A stretch of 36,955 nt of DNA from a virus (lineage: Duplodnaviria; Heunggongvirae; Uroviricota; Caudoviricetes): IMG/VR virus record IMGVR_UViG_2513237361_000013; one strand, 5' to 3'. This document shows, one piece after another, positions 4,850 through 36,955 of this stretch (position 1 is its first letter; each line of letters starts with the position of its first letter). The translations under genes were made by a program, and so were the position numbers. The notes below the pieces were generated by a model. That model was given only the letters and a program-made list of their open reading frames with translations, was not told the origin of the DNA and made no database searches.

Positions 4850-5128
4850 TCAGCTCCATTCCCGAAGCGGTGTTTCCAGCTCCACGACATAATCAGAGAA
4901 TACAGAAACATCAAACAAGTCATCAAGAATGCGAATGTTGACAAAATAACCGTCATTCCGGATACAGACAGGTTCTCCCTCTTCAGTTACCCCTGTTTCT
5001 GTGTAGGTGAAACCAATTTCATCGACTAACAGTTTATTCTGGAGGTCTTCATCTTCCTCCCAGTCAAGAGATGACAGGAAGGATTTAAACTCTCTGTTTC
5101 CAGGAAATTTCAAAGTTAAATCTTTCAT
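4850..5128 (-). CDS. small acidic protein translationally coupled to stf (possible tail-fibre accessory/chaperone)
   Basis: 92 aa. Its ATG overlaps the stf stop as ATGA, and an AAGGAGG Shine-Dalgarno lies inside the stf 3-prime end. Confidence 0.5.
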   Translation of the reverse strand: MKDLTLKFPGNREFKSFLSSLDWEEDEDLQNKLLVDEIGFTYTETGVTEEGEPVCIRNDGYFVNIRILDDLFDVSVFSDYVVELETPLREWS

Positions 5129-7146
5129 ACTGCCTCCTTGATTTGCCTGTCATTTAATTCTTTAAACCAGACTCTGAAATTTCTGATGTGTCCAAACAAA
5201 TGACGCGTTCCTGCTGCGGTCTGCCCACCAAACCGGTACGATGTTGCTGTAACTCCAAATATTTTACCATTAAGGTTTGTTGTATAATTACCATTGCATA
5301 TTGCATTTACTGATAAATCAGATTTAGCTCTCACACCCACAATGAACCTTTCTCCATCTGAGGCAATTTGTGGCTGAACCATTCCTACGTTGGCGCTTAT
5401 CTTTCCTGTTGAAACAAACCCCAGCGATAAATAATTATCATCAATACTGTGCCCTCCAACATCAAATATCCTTGGCGCAACATTGGGCGGTGTACTCCAG
5501 TTCCTGCTTACTTCGCACAATACCGTAAAAGGCCGTGTTGACAGGTTATTCTGCGATGGGATAGTAACCACATCACTTGCGCGTGTTGTTGGCATTGTAG
5601 TTACAATAAATGACGATGCCGTATTGCCCAGTTCAATTTGCGGCGTCGTCATGGTTAATGTTGAGTCATCATAGAATGGCTCATTACTTATTTTATTTGT
5701 CATATAAAAAGCACAGTTAACGGTATCAATGTCCGTATTAGCTGTATAAGTGGCCTCATAGTAGGTCCACTCGCCCTGTTGTTCAGCTTTGGCTGTTATA
5801 AGGGATGTATTACCGCTTACTGTTGCGATCCGGGTATCCAGATCAAGATAAGAGTCAGCAGAGAAGGTATCTGTTCCACCAATAATAACTGAAACTCTTA
5901 ACCTGCATCGTGCTTTAGCGCCTTTAACCCGGCACGAAAAAGTGAAACATTCACCACTTGCCAGCGGGAATCTGTCTGCTGCAACCACACCATGCACAGT
6001 ATAGCCACCTGTTGTTCCCACTATACTTTCCGTGGGTGTCACCGTGGCATAATTGAACCCCTGTTTATCAGTGCCAAATGTTTTATTCAGTGCGGAATGA
6101 ACAGTCCATGAGTCTGGTTTATTTGAGTTCCTCAGATAATTTGTCCTCTGTCCTTCAATCAATAAGCCATCGCGCTCAAATCGCGGTTCATCAACTTCAG
6201 CAAGCTTGAGTTGGCCGGACTTATTAATATACGTTGCTGTTGAAGCACGTTTAAACTTAACAATCTTGTCGCCTGGCATTGTTATTTCATCGTCACCAAT
6301 AACAATCTTTTTATATGATGGCGAAAACCCCGTAATCATATCCAGTGTATCGTTAAACGGTATCCATACATCAGGCAGCGGCGGCACTATATTCGCATAG
6401 GGCTCTGCAGTCACTTCCGCTGCGGCTTCTGCGCGGTCTGCCGCCTTTTCTGCTCGTGTCGCTGCCGACAGAGCCTCATCCTTTTTCTGCCCGGCCTTTG
6501 TTGCGTCTGCTGCGGCCTCCCGCGCTTTTGTGGTGGCGATTCCGGCATTTTCAGCGGCTGACTCTGCATTACGGCGGGAAGCCTCTTCACTGTCTGCGGA
6601 GGCTTCCTCTGACGCACGGGCATTTGTCTCTGAATGTTCTGCCGCTGTTGCTGCATTTTGTGCGGCTGTTTTTGAAGAAGCTGCCGCTTTCGCGCTGTTA
6701 CCTGCATTCGTCTCTGATGTTTTCGCCGCGTTCCTGGACGATGCCGCTGCTGTTTCTGATTTCTTTGCTGCCGCTGCGCTCTGAGAGGCGGCTTCAGCGT
6801 TGCGTGCCGCCTCTTCCACCATCTTTTCAAAACGATACAGTGCCTCCGGACGAACATCATCTTCTGTTGCAGCGCCCAGAAAATCATTCAATGTCCCCGG
6901 CTTAGAATCCTCATACACGGTGATGGTCCCGGCATGTGAAGGCGGAAAACCTTCAACCAGCAGGGCGACGCTGTACTGGCCATACTCAACATCCATGCTG
7001 TAACGTCCGGCTTCATCCGGATTTTCTGAGGCCACCGTGTTCACCACAACTGTGGTGCTGTTACGTTTTGCTTTGAGCTGAATGGTGCAGTTCTGTATCG
7101 GTTTTCCTGCACCGTCTTTCAGCACACCTGAAATCTGTACTGCCAT
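5125..7146 (-). CDS. stf: side tail fibre protein (Stf-like) with Ala/Ser-rich repeat linker and distinct C-terminal domain
   Basis: N-terminal domain MAVQISGVLKDGAGKPIQNCTIQLKAKRNSTTVVVNTVASENPDEAGRYSMDVEYGQYSV matches the lambda-type Stf N-terminus. Start is taken at ATG 7144-7146 (GGAG 6 nt upstream); the longer ORF-track start at 7209 overlaps J. Confidence 0.85.
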   Translation of the reverse strand: MAVQISGVLKDGAGKPIQNCTIQLKAKRNSTTVVVNTVASENPDEAGRYSMDVEYGQYSVALLVEGFPPSHAGTITVYEDSKPGTLNDFLGAATEDDVRPEALYRFEKMVEEAARNAEAASQSAAAAKKSETAAASSRNAAKTSETNAGNSAKAAASSKTAAQNAATAAEHSETNARASEEASADSEEASRRNAESAAENAGIATTKAREAAADATKAGQKKDEALSAATRAEKAADRAEAAAEVTAEPYANIVPPLPDVWIPFNDTLDMITGFSPSYKKIVIGDDEITMPGDKIVKFKRASTATYINKSGQLKLAEVDEPRFERDGLLIEGQRTNYLRNSNKPDSWTVHSALNKTFGTDKQGFNYATVTPTESIVGTTGGYTVHGVVAADRFPLASGECFTFSCRVKGAKARCRLRVSVIIGGTDTFSADSYLDLDTRIATVSGNTSLITAKAEQQGEWTYYEATYTANTDIDTVNCAFYMTNKISNEPFYDDSTLTMTTPQIELGNTASSFIVTTMPTTRASDVVTIPSQNNLSTRPFTVLCEVSRNWSTPPNVAPRIFDVGGHSIDDNYLSLGFVSTGKISANVGMVQPQIASDGERFIVGVRAKSDLSVNAICNGNYTTNLNGKIFGVTATSYRFGGQTAAGTRHLFGHIRNFRVWFKELNDRQIKEAV

Positions 7147-7150
7147 ATTC

Positions 7151-7180
7151 ACTCCACAAATAAAAAAGGCACCATTTCTG
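7151..7180 (-). terminator. intrinsic terminator between J and stf
   Basis: Stem GGCACC (7163-7168) / GGTGCC (7175-7180) with a 6-nt loop, followed on the minus strand by TTTTTTATTTGT, just before the stf Shine-Dalgarno. Confidence 0.55.
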
Positions 7181-7205
7181 GTGCCCGAATTTGGGGTTTT
7201 AAAAT

Positions 7206-8816
7206 TCAACTGATACTGATGCCGGCTGTTGATTTCTTCATCACGACAACAAGAAGGTCGCTGATACTGGTCGTTGGCGTCCAGTTATTTGCACCATATG
7301 AAGAAACATTGAAAGTCAGGGTGACATGGCCGTGTCCGGCAGGCATATCAATGACTGATGAAAATACCCTGCTGACATCCGTCGCGGGTTGCTGAAAGAT
7401 TTCCTGTCCGTTCTTCAGCACCTGCAGCTTACAGGTTGAATACCAGTATGACTGTTGGTTGTTGCTGTTGAAGTTTTCATGCTTACCACCGCGAAACAGA
7501 ACGGGGGGGATTACTATCTGACGGTCAAAAGCCTGGTCATCGTACACCGTGACCGTTATTGTACCGCTGGCATAACTGCTATTTCTCGGAAAGGCTTTTC
7601 CCACCGTTTTAACAATATCGCCTTCAATCTGGTTGGCTGACAGTTTTCCCAGAATCCGGCAGTTCTGATTAATCGTGACATTGTTGAGCGTCCCGGAGTT
7701 CGCGTTCACGTTACCGCTGATATCCGCATTTTTCGCCGTCAGCCGCCCGTCCGGTGTCAGGGAAAATGCCGGAGGATTACCGCCGCTGGTAATGGTGGGA
7801 GCCGTCAGATATTTCAGGAACACTTCATTCATAAATATCTGATCGCCCTGACCAACAAACATCGGCTTTGTATTGCCATTCGCAGGATTAATCATCGCAA
7901 TCCTGTCCGCCGCCAGCAGCACCTGACTCTGCATACCGTCAGGGGTATTCTCAATACCGGCACCAATACCCGCGATATAAAGGCGTCCGTCCTGCATCTG
8001 CTGCAGCTTCACAGCCCACATGCTGTTCAGGTTATTATTTGTATCAACCTGAACCTTCTGTATCTGCTGGATCGCTGCACTCTGGTCTTCCAGTTTCTTA
8101 TTGACGGTCTGCGTGATTTCATTGCTGACATCCGTAATGGACGTCCTGATTTCAGCCAGGTCAGGCGCAAGCTGACCGTTATCAATCTGCGTCCACAACT
8201 CCTGAGCCAGATGGGTTTTCCCTATCTCTCCTTTGAAAAAATCCAGATAGCCGGATGCATCATCACTCGGCTGGCCAACAGCCTCCACAAATGCCGATTT
8301 GCCAACGGTGTTCACACTGCGAATGTAAAAATAATAATCATGGCCCGGTTTGATATTGATACTAGCGGCTATCCAGTACAGCGCCGTACCAAGATAACGC
8401 GCGCTGGCTTCAACCTGCCTGATATCCGCAATCCGCTTTTCCGAGAACCAGAACTCAAACTGTACCGTCGGATCATAAACGGCAAGATGCGGCGTTGCGG
8501 TTATCTGAAAATAGCCCGGCGTCAGCTCAATCCGCGATGGCGCTGCCGGTGCGGCAATCCGGAACGATACCGACGCCGGATCCCCCTGCTGCCCCCACGC
8601 ATTTACCGCCCGGACTGTCAGCCTGTAGTTCCCCAGCGCCAGTTGCCTGAAGCGGTATGTGGTTTCCGTCGTCCTGGCCGTGCTGACCAGAAGAAATGTC
8701 CGGTGAAATGCTGGTTCTGGTGCCGGAAAGGCTGGAGATGCTGAAGGTGTTGCGAAATACCTGCCCGGTGTACAGCGGATGCATACCTCTGTCGGACCTG
8801 GAAAGAACAGTCCGTA
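7206..8816 (-). pseudogene. J: tail tip/host-specificity protein J, C-terminal portion only (5-prime truncated)
   Basis: Open frame of 537 codons closed upstream by TAA at 8817-8819. Contains lambda-J-like segments ([32 protein letters not shown]..., [40 protein letters not shown]). Full J is about 1100 aa; there is no start codon in frame between 8316 and 8816. Confidence 0.85.
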
Positions 8817-33951: not shown

Positions 33952-34380
33952 TTACTTTAAACACTGCTCGGTTATGTATTGCTGAGCACCTTCAAGTTGG
34001 GCCTGCATCATTACCAGTCGTTCCCGGAGGGTGAAATAATCCCGTTCAGCGGTGTCTGCCAGTCGGGGGGAGGCTGCATTATCCACGCCGGAGGCGGTGG
34101 TGGCTTCACGCACTGACTGACAGACTGCTTTGATGTGCAACCGACGACGACCAGCGGCAACATCATCACGCAGAGCATCATTTTCAGCTTTCGCATCAGC
34201 TAACTCCTTCGTGTATTTTGCATCGAGCGCAGCAACATCACGCTGACGCATCTGCATGTCAGTAATTGCCGCGTTCGCCAGCTTCAGTTCTCTGGCATTT
34301 TTGTCGCGCTGTTCTTTGTAGGCGATGGCGTTATCACGGTAATGATTAACACCCCATGACAGGCAGACGACCGGTTCCAT
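33952..34380 (-). pseudogene. Rz: Rz i-spanin, N-terminally truncated (transmembrane segment and RBS lost)
   Basis: 142 aa, near-identical from memory to lambda Rz from CLSW(A/G)VNHYRDNA onward, but beginning MEPVV in place of the N-terminal transmembrane segment. No Shine-Dalgarno upstream. Confidence 0.7.
34011..34196 (-). CDS. Rz1: Rz1 o-spanin lipoprotein (embedded in Rz, alternative frame)
   Basis: 61 aa with lipobox VVGC and proline-rich [15 protein letters not shown], nested in the Rz frame. Confidence 0.85.
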
Positions 34381-34405
34381 TCAACAGTCATAAGGAGTTT
34401 CATTT

Positions 34406-34636
34406 ATGACAGTCAGTATTGTTTCACCTTCCGCAGCGACTGTAAAGCCCCGCCGTCATCCCCGTTTCAGACGCGAAGACATCCCCGCGCCGGAAATTGA
34501 CCCCGTACTGAAAGCCTTCGGGCGACACATAGCCCGGAGTTTTCACCGGGGGCGTGGTGTACACATCCCCGCCATGAAAAACACGGCCTTCGGGCAGGTG
34601 CTCCGCACACTCGAACTGAAACGCGCTTTTAACTGA
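34406..34636 (+). CDS. small basic hypothetical protein (first gene of plus-strand operon)
   Basis: 76 aa with AAGGAG 8 nt upstream of the ATG. Shares an IPxPEIDPVLK motif with the small ORF at 19748..20002. Confidence 0.5.
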   Translation: MTVSIVSPSAATVKPRRHPRFRREDIPAPEIDPVLKAFGRHIARSFHRGRGVHIPAMKNTAFGQVLRTLELKRAFN

Positions 34637-34687
34637 TGAGGTGAGCCGCCCCGCGAGGGGCGGCAACAGACGGAAGGAGAACATTTT

Positions 34688-36049
34688 ATGACATTAGCAG
34701 CAATCACCATGACCGCCCCGGAAGCCGCCAGTCCTGTGCAGATGTACCGCGCGACCTACTCACCGGATGATAACAAACTGCGCCTGTATGCCGCGTCACG
34801 TCTTGACCAGGAAACGTATAAAAAAGTGCATGATGCCGGTTTCCGCTGGGCACCCAAACAGGCGCTGTTTGTCGCGCCGGCCTGGACACCGGGCCGGGAA
34901 GACGTGCTCCTCTCACTTGCCGGAGAGATTGAGGATGAAGACAGCACGCTCGCTGAACGTCAGGAAGCACGGGCGGAGCGGTTTACCGGATACAGCGGAA
35001 AGCGGGCCAGTGAATCCGCACAGGCACTTGATGAAGTGGAAAGACTGGCCGCGATGATCCCGCCCGGTCAACCCATTCTTGTGGGGCATCACAGCGAACG
35101 CCGCGCCCGTCGTGATGCGCAGCGTATTGAAAACGGCATGAAACGTGCCGTGATGCTCTTTGAACGTGCGGAATACTGGGAAGAACGCGCGCGGTCGGCA
35201 CTGCTTCACGCGAAGTATAAAGAACGTCCGGACGTTCGCTGGCGTCGTATCAAAAAAATCGAAGCTGATTTGCGCAAGGCTGAAAAGACCATCGCACAGT
35301 CGCAGAAATATCTGACGATGTGGCGGGCTGAATCGCTGGATCTGAATATGGCAAAACTCATCAGCAGTCATGACCATATCAGCGCCTGTTTCCCGCTGGA
35401 TACGTATCCGCGCCCGGCAGAAAAAAGCCAGTATGAAGGAAGTCGATCGTTATGGTCGGCCCTGGATGATGACATCATCACCACGGAGCAGGCCCGCGAA
35501 ATTGCGATCCGCTGTCATGAACGGCAGATCCAGCGTCAGCAACGCTGGGTTAACCACTATCAGAACCGCCTGATCTATGAGCGTGCCATGCTGGACGAAA
35601 GCGGCGGCGTGGTTACCCGGACACAGGATTTTGAGCCGGGCGGACAGGTTTTCAGCCGGGGCGAGTGGCTGACCATCATCCGTGTGAACAAAAGCAACGG
35701 GGCGGTGAGTTCAGTCACAACGCCAAATTACAGTTTTCTCGGGTACAGCGGCACGATGAAAGTGACGCCCGATCGCATCACGGACTACAAAGCACCATCG
35801 GCAGAAGAGGCTGCCGTCGCCAGTCAGGCCGCGAAGCGTCCGCCGGTAGTCAACTATCCGGGGGAAGGTTTCCGGGAAATGACAAAGGCACAGTGGGCCG
35901 CCCTGCCCCGGGACTGTAAGGCCGTGCGCAGTGTGGCAGAAGCAGAAGACCACGGGGCATACCGCTACCGCCGCACAATGGACAATAATTTCCGCCTGGT
36001 GAATGTGTATATCACCGACATGAAAATCACGGAAATCCCACAGAAATAA
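34688..36049 (+). CDS. large conserved hypothetical protein (plasmid/phage-associated, DUF3560-like by recollection)
   Basis: 453-aa GC-rich ORF with a coherent charged/helical sequence and no internal stops. The family assignment is from memory only. Confidence 0.65.
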   Translation: MTLAAITMTAPEAASPVQMYRATYSPDDNKLRLYAASRLDQETYKKVHDAGFRWAPKQALFVAPAWTPGREDVLLSLAGEIEDEDSTLAERQEARAERFTGYSGKRASESAQALDEVERLAAMIPPGQPILVGHHSERRARRDAQRIENGMKRAVMLFERAEYWEERARSALLHAKYKERPDVRWRRIKKIEADLRKAEKTIAQSQKYLTMWRAESLDLNMAKLISSHDHISACFPLDTYPRPAEKSQYEGSRSLWSALDDDIITTEQAREIAIRCHERQIQRQQRWVNHYQNRLIYERAMLDESGGVVTRTQDFEPGGQVFSRGEWLTIIRVNKSNGAVSSVTTPNYSFLGYSGTMKVTPDRITDYKAPSAEEAAVASQAAKRPPVVNYPGEGFREMTKAQWAALPRDCKAVRSVAEAEDHGAYRYRRTMDNNFRLVNVYITDMKITEIPQK

Positions 36050-36096
36050 GGTATATCCCCCCGGGAAAATCCCCGGGGGATGACGGAGATAATGAC

Positions 36097-36660
36097 ATGC
36101 ACAGTCAGTTAAGAGAACGTATCCGGCTGATGCGCGCAAGGCTGGATAACGCCGCGCCGGTTGCTGAAATCCGGGCTGAATCTCAGCTTTTTGTGACTCC
36201 TGCCCCGGTCTGTGATCGCCTGGTGACGCTGGCGGAGATCAGCAACCGTGATCACATTCTGGAACCCTCTGCCGGCACCGGGGCCATACTGCGGGCGATT
36301 CGGGATACCGCACCGGGGGCCATGTGTGATGCGGTGGAGATTAACAGCGGGCTGGTCCGGTATCTGCGGGACAATTTTAACGGTGTCAGGGTACAGTGTT
36401 GCGACTTCATGGAATGGCAGCCGGTGCAGTATTACAGCCGGATTATCATGAATCCGCCGTTCAGTCACGGGCAGGATATCCGGCATATCCTGCGGGCTTT
36501 TTCCCTGTTGCGTCCGGGGGGCGTGCTGGTTGCCGTCTGTCTGAACGGGCCGCGCCAGCAGGAGAAGCTGTTACCGTTTTCTGACGTCCGCGAGGAGCTG
36601 CCACGCGGCACGTTTGCTTATACCAGTGTTCCGACGATGATTATTCGTCTGCGTGCCTGA
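36097..36660 (+). CDS. small class I SAM-dependent methyltransferase with NPPF motif
   Basis: 187 aa with motif I LEPSAGTGA and motif IV NPPF, typical of amino-group (N6-A/N4-C or RsmD-like) methyltransferases. Confidence 0.8.
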   Translation: MHSQLRERIRLMRARLDNAAPVAEIRAESQLFVTPAPVCDRLVTLAEISNRDHILEPSAGTGAILRAIRDTAPGAMCDAVEINSGLVRYLRDNFNGVRVQCCDFMEWQPVQYYSRIIMNPPFSHGQDIRHILRAFSLLRPGGVLVAVCLNGPRQQEKLLPFSDVREELPRGTFAYTSVPTMIIRLRA

Positions 36661-36666
36661 TGACGC

Positions 36667-36700
36667 CGGGCAGGCGGGAGGATAAATGCCCGTCTGCCCG
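36667..36700 (+). other. GC-rich 12-bp-stem hairpin immediately after methyltransferase stop
   Basis: CGGGCAGGCGGG (36667-36678) pairs with CCCGTCTGCCCG (36689-36700) with one mismatch and a 10-nt loop. No U-run follows. Confidence 0.4.
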
Positions 36701-36789
36701 CGCCGGGAAAAACCGCGCGCCGGTGGCGCTGAAAGGGGCCGCGCTGACGCGCCGCCCCTTCCATTACGCGGATATTCTGATGGGGACTT

Positions 36790-36932
36790 CTGTCTTTTCA
36801 GACCTGTCATTTGTCTGTTACTGATGATGTTGTTGTTCCTGCTACTGCTACTGTTCTTCTTTTTTCTGATGCTCTCATTACTGTTTGTTTTGTTGTTCTC
36901 CTGCTTATGCCTTTTCCGGGCGCTCTTTAAAA
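36790..36932 (+). repeat. A-poor (CTG/TTG/TTC)n-like low-complexity tract
   Basis: About 140 nt almost devoid of A on the plus strand. It reads as Leu/Phe/Met codon repeats in the frame of ORF 36686..36955. Confidence 0.5.
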
Positions 36933-36955
36933 ATCTGGATCAAGCTGAAAATTGA

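Follow-up and report, generated by a model that had tools for sequence, protein, structure and literature searches.

Frpo/ssi single-stranded-DNA promoters were reportedly described by Masai and Arai in 1997. [quoted passage not shown] 2023) and make up class 1 among three classes of single-stranded-DNA promoters (Wen et al. 2025); in published descriptions of the leading region, the leading genes are transcribed from the transferred strand. A fragment carrying Frpo2 has been used to express an anti-CRISPR, and was functional (Samuel et al. 2024). Promoters of this class, as found in F and ColIb-P9, are recognized by their Frpo homology and by an imperfect stem-loop of about 290–330 nt that rebuilds the −35 and −10 boxes. 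The Frpo borders used in this work were taken from later papers and a supplement. At operon ends in E. coli, Rho-dependent 3′ ends have been mapped to stable, protective stem-loops that lack a U tract; rut sites and an enrichment of C over G follow immediately downstream of them (Dar & Sorek 2018; PMC6061677).

Here, we analysed the DNA that follows a methyltransferase gene at the right-hand end of a 36,955-nt stretch, the whole of which is referred to as the window. Like the Rho-dependent operon ends, this locus has GC-rich stem-loops after the stop codon and no U tract; the untranslated stretch that follows is probably weakly structured and, in part, richer in C than in G. It differs from them in that the tract is unusually long, T-rich, A-free and built of variable hexamers, with a modest C/G ratio, and Rho would be assigned to it by analogy. 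The class-1 promoters share the same plasmid region with the locus, and the tract flanks, on its 5′ side, the repeat unit that contains Frpo2, with which it travels; the tract itself, however, has neither a promoter stem-loop nor −35 and −10 elements, and the promoter is missing from the window. When the Frpo unit of F was compared with the window by BLAST, there was no match to the Frpo core, the window switching to rRNA spacer at position 36,922. The region is the untranslated 3′ end of an operon in the leading region of an F-like plasmid, comprising a 76-aa gene, a DUF3560 gene and the methyltransferase gene, and we consider that there is roughly an even chance (about 50%) that it works as an operon-end terminator or insulator of the Rho-dependent type.

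The plasmid origin of the segment was clear from several comparisons. Positions 34,372–36,922 (+ strand) shared 96–98% identity with the leading region of conjugative, F-like plasmids of the IncF/pO157 type, exactly over that span and with sharp joins at both ends. A megablast search of complete E. coli genomes with positions 36,400–36,955 gave long matches on plasmids (94% coverage, 96–98% identity), annotated there as “methyltransferase” and “hypothetical protein”. Matches to the spacer numbered at least 5000 among plasmid records; most of these plasmids are conjugative, and their hosts are Escherichia, Klebsiella, Salmonella and Shigella. A search of the phage collection with the segment returned no match. 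The fragment contains the 76-aa gene, the DUF3560 gene, the class I SAM methyltransferase gene and the 3′ spacer, in the same order as in the loci L001, L002, L010 and L023–L032, and Pfam searches of it returned DUF3560 and MTS. The methyltransferase gene (36,097–36,660, + strand), which is the last of the operon, was identified from its open reading frame, its methyltransferase domains in Pfam, and the plasmid annotation “class I SAM-dependent methyltransferase”. On the minus strand of L002 (3911–4012), Rfam also returned AS-pc01 (RF02875, “antisense to pHK01_035”), with a score that just reached the gathering threshold. This site directly precedes the 76-aa gene, with the upstream Frpo copy on its other side, and the window retains no more than about 34 nt of it (34,372–34,405).

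On both sides of the fragment, the window is of other origin. To the left of 34,372, homology to a chromosomal Rac-like prophage (trkG and the Rz lysis gene) ends at 34,371, and the remainder of the window consists of lambdoid structural genes. To the right, the last 34 nt (36,922–36,955, + strand) are foreign DNA from the 16S–23S spacer of an rRNA operon, with a 100% match that occurs some seven times per E. coli chromosome, at sites without annotation between tRNA-Ala and the 23S gene, 86 nt before the latter. Both joins (34,371/34,372 and 36,922/36,923) were absent from all 5,426 complete E. coli genomes searched. The window is contained, letter for letter, in AEME01000001.1 (GCA_000208565.2), a 4.81-Mb draft record that continues past the window into the rest of the spacer (StyR-44), the 23S and 5S genes, minus-strand tRNAs, csrA and alaS. 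Around the joins, this record has no Ns, and its rRNA operon is partial, lacking the 16S gene. The joins are probably the result of a gap-free concatenation of draft contigs, one of prophage DNA, one of plasmid DNA (2.55 kb) and one of collapsed rRNA sequence, placed end to end. The plasmid piece ends exactly where a repeated Frpo unit starts, and it is at such a place that a short-read assembly would break.

As judged from the sequence, it is only by way of the sharp join at 34,371/34,372 that the plasmid fragment lies next to prophage DNA. The framing of the segment as prophage DNA had to be abandoned, since it consists of plasmid leading-region DNA that has no phage match and is joined to its neighbours in none of the complete genomes. 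The original prediction had also offered a recombination site as one reading of the hairpins. Nothing points to such a site, or to an attachment site: at the abrupt ends there are a partial rRNA operon and a truncated Rz gene, in a draft record without gaps, and contig joins are the best explanation for them. The first three codons of the Rz gene (33,952–34,380), in which an Rz1-like lipoprotein ORF is embedded (34,011–34,196), fall beyond the join at 34,371/34,372, inside the plasmid-derived segment. The last 31 nt of the window (36,925–36,955) correspond to the start of the StyR-44 family (RF01830; 6829–6937 in L028, the source record), located in the rRNA spacer just before the 23S gene.

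The methyltransferase stop codon is followed by GC-rich hairpins without U-runs, as the original prediction had stated, and we found three of them. RNA folding of positions 36,655–36,790 gave three stem-loops with a total energy of −69.9 kcal/mol (z = −3.15), and none of 200 shuffled sequences was as stable. A stable stem-loop structure without a U tract stands right after the gene. The complementary strand, folded as DNA, gave z = −3.44. Hairpin 1 (36,665–36,703, + strand) has a GC-rich stem of 12–14 bp, a 10-nt loop and one conserved G·T(U) wobble. Hairpin 2 (36,717–36,729, + strand; GCGCC-GGT-GGCGC) and hairpin 3 (36,733–36,760, + strand; AAGGGGC.GCGC-UGAC-GCGC.GCCCCUU) were likewise found in the RNA fold. 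A consensus scan of the equivalent plasmid site for an intrinsic terminator after the methyltransferase gene returned no match on the + strand, nor was there a U-run. On the minus strand, hairpin 2 is followed by a T-run, and a weak terminator-like match was found on that strand at the equivalent site of pO157. A search of the pO157 spacer with Rfam 15 gave no match at E ≤ 1, apart from chance miRNA matches inside Frpo.

REP/BIME palindromes, too, form clusters of GC-rich hairpins between genes, lie at the ends of operons and are repeated at several sites. The hairpins described here differ from these in having no sequence similarity to them and no Rfam match, and in being plasmid-borne and tied to one cassette. 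Terminators associated with REP elements, said to have been described by Peters et al., are a further example of Rho-dependent operon ends that have protective stem-loops at the 3′ side.

Conservation of the hairpins was assessed in an alignment of ten cassette copies, taken from six plasmids plus the window, which are related by descent. In this alignment, 92.4% of the cells paired, compared to 41–52% when the partners were slid. Double changes were present at seven pairs, and the covariation score was higher than that of all 500 shuffles; in related sequences such covariation is best taken as supportive rather than decisive. The pairs of hairpin 1 were kept in all ten copies, with G·U at the wobble position in nine. 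Hairpin 3 had undergone a compensatory change from G-C to A-U in F-type copies, and at the position of hairpin 2, cassettes of the F/ColIb type have another, different hairpin instead. There were 25 G·U pairs among the paired cells, all of which would be C·A mismatches on the other, transferred strand. As a G·U pair can form only in RNA or on the + strand, the structure is more likely to be one of the sense RNA (or of the + DNA strand). The suggestion that the region is a structured RNA is therefore plausible as far as the hairpins are concerned.

An A-depleted tract of about 140 nt had been predicted after the hairpins, and it is indeed present. The pyrimidine-rich, non-coding tract at 36,783–36,922 (+ strand) consists of 9% A, 49% T, 22% C and 20% G, with 13 A and 68 T in its 140 nt. 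Its (T−A)/(T+A) skew of 0.68 was above that of all 200 shuffles (maximum 0.576) and ranked second among the 140-nt stretches of the window on either strand. The earlier descriptions of the tract as compositionally aberrant and as non-coding simple sequence were thus both correct: the skew is extreme, the tract contains hexamer repeats, and it has no conserved frame. The most A-poor and T-over-A-skewed stretch of the window, at 6369–6834, lies inside a minus-strand prophage tail-fibre gene (5125–7209, Pfam phage_tail_N), and is thus an effect of coding composition that is unrelated to the tract. A general mutation bias of the strand was considered and rejected, because the neighbouring genes have opposite A/T skews with no common excess of T over A. 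H-DNA or triplex formation was rejected as a general explanation as well, since the long homopyrimidine runs of the F-type tract are absent here, and it is the depletion of A that is conserved instead.

Since the transferred strand corresponds to the minus strand of the window, the mRNA carries the pyrimidine-rich version of the tract, and the strand that enters the recipient has the version that is purine-rich and poor in T. For the best 78 nt of the tract, the C/G ratio was 1.73 in the window copy, above the 95th percentile of the leading-region background (1.47), compared to 1.92 in pO157 and about 2.1 in Klebsiella and Salmonella; the two copies of F reached 6.0 and 4.5. Over the whole tract, however, the ratio was only 1.11 in the window copy, and below 1 in the Citrobacter copy. 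In the RNA, the tract had a moderate predicted probability of being unpaired (0.32–0.63). Folding predicts it to be less paired than its flanks. In minimum free energy folds, the 3′ end of the tract (CTCC) was predicted to pair with the Shine–Dalgarno region of the downstream gene in a helix that closes a Frpo super-hairpin. The duplex energies were not clearly better than those of shuffled tracts (z = −3.2 to +0.6), and this predicted helix is probably driven by composition.

The tract contains a hexamer microsatellite, detected by TRF at 36,839–36,853 (+ strand) as 2.5 copies of CTGCTA. Close relatives had 11.5 (L001), 6.5 (pO157) and 3.5 (L027) copies, and the lengths of the BLAST matches differed in 6-nt steps. 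With a perfect hexamer repeat whose copy number varies among near-identical plasmids, the tract is similar to microsatellite or VNTR contingency tracts, but the repeat lies outside coding regions and promoter spacers, and no switchable phenotype is known for it. The 3′ end of the tract, GTTTTGTTGTTCTCCTGCTTATGCCTTTTCCGGGCG (36,880–36,922, + strand), is common to several cassette types. In the plasmids it abuts a conserved GC-rich domain, which is followed by the Frpo stem-loop, whereas the plasmid continuation TCCCCCTGGCGGGG... is absent from the window.

In pO157 and other F-like plasmids, the DUF3560 and methyltransferase genes are followed by a spacer of about 840 bp and then by ssb, a DUF905 gene, a parB-like gene, psiB, psiA and hok. 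Downstream of the tract, the plasmids contain a repeated unit about 535 nt long. F has two copies of it, with 77–95% identity between them; these units include Frpo2, before ssb, and Frpo1, before ygeA. The 3′ part of the tract belongs to the direct repeat that is common to Frpo1 and Frpo2, and all plasmid relatives of the window continue past the spacer into Frpo and ssb. Between the tract and the functional Frpo hairpin there is a conserved, GC-rich and strongly structured domain of about 260 nt (L003, 10,096–10,356 and 15,484–15,745; L002, 6554–6815). This domain lies outside the published working Frpo2 construct, and a different domain takes its place in the IncI1 and Klebsiella FIB(K) cassettes. 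Group II introns (ltrA) were observed in or next to Frpo/ssb units in L001 (7088–9830), L010 (14,398–16,065) and L029 (8029–9930), in one case splitting ssb; structured promoter repeats may be preferred targets for these introns. A scan of genome contigs with a 21-nt motif from the Frpo boundary yielded six loci, mostly short contaminant contigs in unrelated MAGs. Among the short contigs (L004–L009) were Frpo-bearing E. coli plasmid fragments in assemblies labelled Streptomyces, Collinsella, Oscillibacter and Ferruginibacter, which are likely to result from contamination or mis-binning.

In most of the plasmid lineages examined, class-1 Frpo copies have such a tract on their 5′ side. F, pO157 and AR_0015 each have two Frpo copies, and all of these show the combination of a stop codon, hairpins, a pyrimidine-rich tract and Frpo homology. 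The cassette of hairpins, tract and Frpo also occurred in two Klebsiella IncFII copies, in Citrobacter, in Klebsiella FIB(K) and in E. hormaechei, and, in a short form, in ColIb-P9. As the copies are related by descent, this recurrence does not constitute independent evidence. In a pSLT-like plasmid from Salmonella, the hairpins are missing and the tract consists of about 30 CCTGTT units. In plasmids from Yersinia, Serratia and Salmonella Bareilly, the tract amounts to no more than about 50 nt, and the Frpo–ssb unit of an Atlantibacter plasmid has neither hairpins nor tract. The tract is thus dispensable, since some lineages lack it or lack a long version. Between cassette types, the sequence of the tract is not conserved, and the repeats differ, being (CTGCTA)n, (TCTTCC)n or (CCTGTT)n depending on the type. 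The composition, in contrast, is kept, with 4–12% A, 40–51% T and a C/G ratio usually above 1.

The lack of sequence conservation, together with a length that ranges from 0 to about 265 nt across lineages and with repeat numbers of 2.5–11.5 among near-identical plasmids, is what would be expected if the tract were a functionless, slippage-prone simple-sequence spacer in which hexamers expand and contract neutrally and only the hairpins matter. We regard this as a possibility that deserves some weight, albeit one that is doubtful. The three different hexamer repeats and the non-repetitive parts of the tract all hold A at a low level (4–12%) on the same strand, which fits less well with neutral drift, and the neighbouring genes show no sign of a mutation pressure that would produce it.

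The same persistence of the strand asymmetry across independent repeat expansions would fit a role for the tract on the transferred single strand during conjugation, either as a non-pairing spacer, purine-rich and poor in T, that would allow the large promoter stem-loops to fold correctly, or by altering the loading of SSB or RecA or the release of RNA. Consistent with such a role, the tract is tied to the Frpo repeat unit, with its 3′ part in the Frpo1/Frpo2 direct repeat, and in folds of the transferred strand it was the least paired zone, situated between the Frpo domains and the hairpins, with a probability of being unpaired of 0.43–0.85, compared to about 0.30 in Frpo. However, the functional Frpo2 fragment (Samuel et al. 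2024) begins some 260 nt past the downstream end of the tract. As this fragment works without the tract, the tract is not part of the functional promoter. Its absence from some lineages and the conserved G·T wobbles of the adjacent hairpins, which favour the + strand over the transferred strand, also speak against this role, and we consider it unlikely. More speculatively, the hairpin cluster and the A-free tract might together form a dedicated insulator of single-stranded-DNA-promoter cassettes that acts in the single-stranded phase of conjugation. For example, an unfolded, T-poor purine strand and a weak, rU:dA-rich hybrid might release upstream transcripts before the next promoter hairpin melts, and the hexamer repeat might tune spacing or efficiency between lineages. 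To this idea we attach little probability.

The original prediction had also described a Leu/Phe-rich ORF that ends at the edge of the window, and had suggested that it could encode a small, hydrophobic, toxin-like peptide. The ORF exists as letters (36,686–36,955, + strand), starting with ATG and encoding 89 aa with a Leu/Phe-rich core. Its stop at the edge is coincidental, since the source record continues into the 23S gene, and its last 11 codons and stop codon consist of the rRNA spacer DNA that was joined at 36,922. Furthermore, the full length is found only in the window and its source record. An A-run at 36,708–36,712 (+ strand) is one base shorter than in the aligned relatives, and it is this private deletion, which may be a homopolymer sequencing error, that opens the long frame. 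Starting from this ATG, the frame runs for only 15 codons, MPVCPRREK..RRWR, before a stop in all 12 relatives examined, which are pO157, AR_0015 and ten contigs or plasmids whose methyltransferase protein is identical. There is also an in-frame TGA in the Leu/Phe frame of pO157, and Pfam gave no family match for the 89-aa ORF. For practical purposes, the toxin-like peptide is refuted.

The original prediction had named a longer Gln/Asn-rich gene on the minus strand of the tract as one outcome that would refute it, and RefSeq does annotate a Ser/Asn/Lys-rich “hypothetical protein” there in many plasmids, with 151 aa in pO157 (WP_001358896.1) and 118 aa in F (WP_000388237.1). Although the length of the repeat unit, a multiple of three, would be compatible with a real gene for such a protein, the ORF is unconvincing. 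Its boundaries are inconsistent, gene callers disagreeing between products of 151–255 aa and none at all, and no such ORF is present in the Frpo1 cassettes. The N-terminal halves are Arg/Pro/Gly-rich read-outs of GC-rich promoter DNA, the sole Pfam match was far below threshold, and T-poor DNA stays open in several frames through its composition alone. In eleven cassette copies, two to three frames per strand were open at once, with the open frames varying by cassette type, and no reading frame was conserved across cassette types on either strand. The lack of A on the + strand, and of T on the minus strand, removes stop codons, and the long ORFs are thus by-products of composition. A genuine minus-strand gene is accordingly very improbable, and the annotation of the tract as a hypothetical protein in thousands of RefSeq plasmids is probably wrong.

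Returning to the reading that we prefer, an operon end of the Rho-dependent type, the three GC-rich stem-loops past the stop codon would form in the sense RNA and shield the 3′ end of the mRNA from exonucleases. The following 140–260 nt of untranslated, weakly structured, A-poor sequence with more C than G would allow Rho to load on read-through transcripts and to halt them before the ssb–psiB operon. The tract is made largely of unstable hexamer repeats, so that its length and sequence drift while its composition stays the same. In the window, the segment breaks off, probably at an assembly join, just where the plasmid would go on with the GC-rich domain, followed by Frpo2 and ssb. Sequence comparison shows the plasmid identity of the segment, its truncation, the conservation of the hairpins, the recurrence and repeat polymorphism of the tract and the lack of a conserved reading frame, whereas the action at the RNA level and the part played by Rho are inferred.

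Insulation is suggested by other operon boundaries in the leading region of F, which carry terminators before the next single-stranded-DNA promoter. In F, a canonical intrinsic terminator, made up of a hairpin followed by T7 (L003, 8347–8365), closes the operon that precedes the class-2 promoter, and in the Frpo1 cassette, the hairpin at the start of the tract is followed by a T-rich run. An equivalent flank was also sought at the class-2 promoters, where the C-rich stretch upstream of klcA turned out to be inside the promoter stem-loop and was rejected as not equivalent. Several features count against this reading. The tract of the window is T-rich rather than C-rich, with the low overall C/G ratio given above; its RNA is predicted to be only moderately unpaired; it is A, and not G, that is persistently avoided, which is not what a pure rut site requires; and the long tract is dispensable, being missing in some lineages.

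The compositional observations that drew attention to this locus are real, but the object itself is ordinary: a known plasmid region that was cut off and misplaced by assembly, with artefactual ORFs. The main value of the analysis thus lies in the correction of a plasmid fragment in a concatenated draft “chromosome” that had been read as prophage, and of a composition-driven ORF that had been read as a toxin candidate. A minor new point is that a recurring module of hairpins and an A-poor spacer appears to separate operons in the leading region of F-like plasmids; the literature that we searched contained no description of a recurring hairpin and A-poor repeat spacer before class-1 single-stranded-DNA promoter units. 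The hexamer repeat provides a ready marker for plasmid typing. The leading-region operons of F-like plasmids are of current interest for anti-defence functions and early expression, and if the module does act as a terminator or insulator, this would help to explain how operons driven by single-stranded-DNA promoters are kept independent of each other, and silent once the plasmid has become double-stranded.
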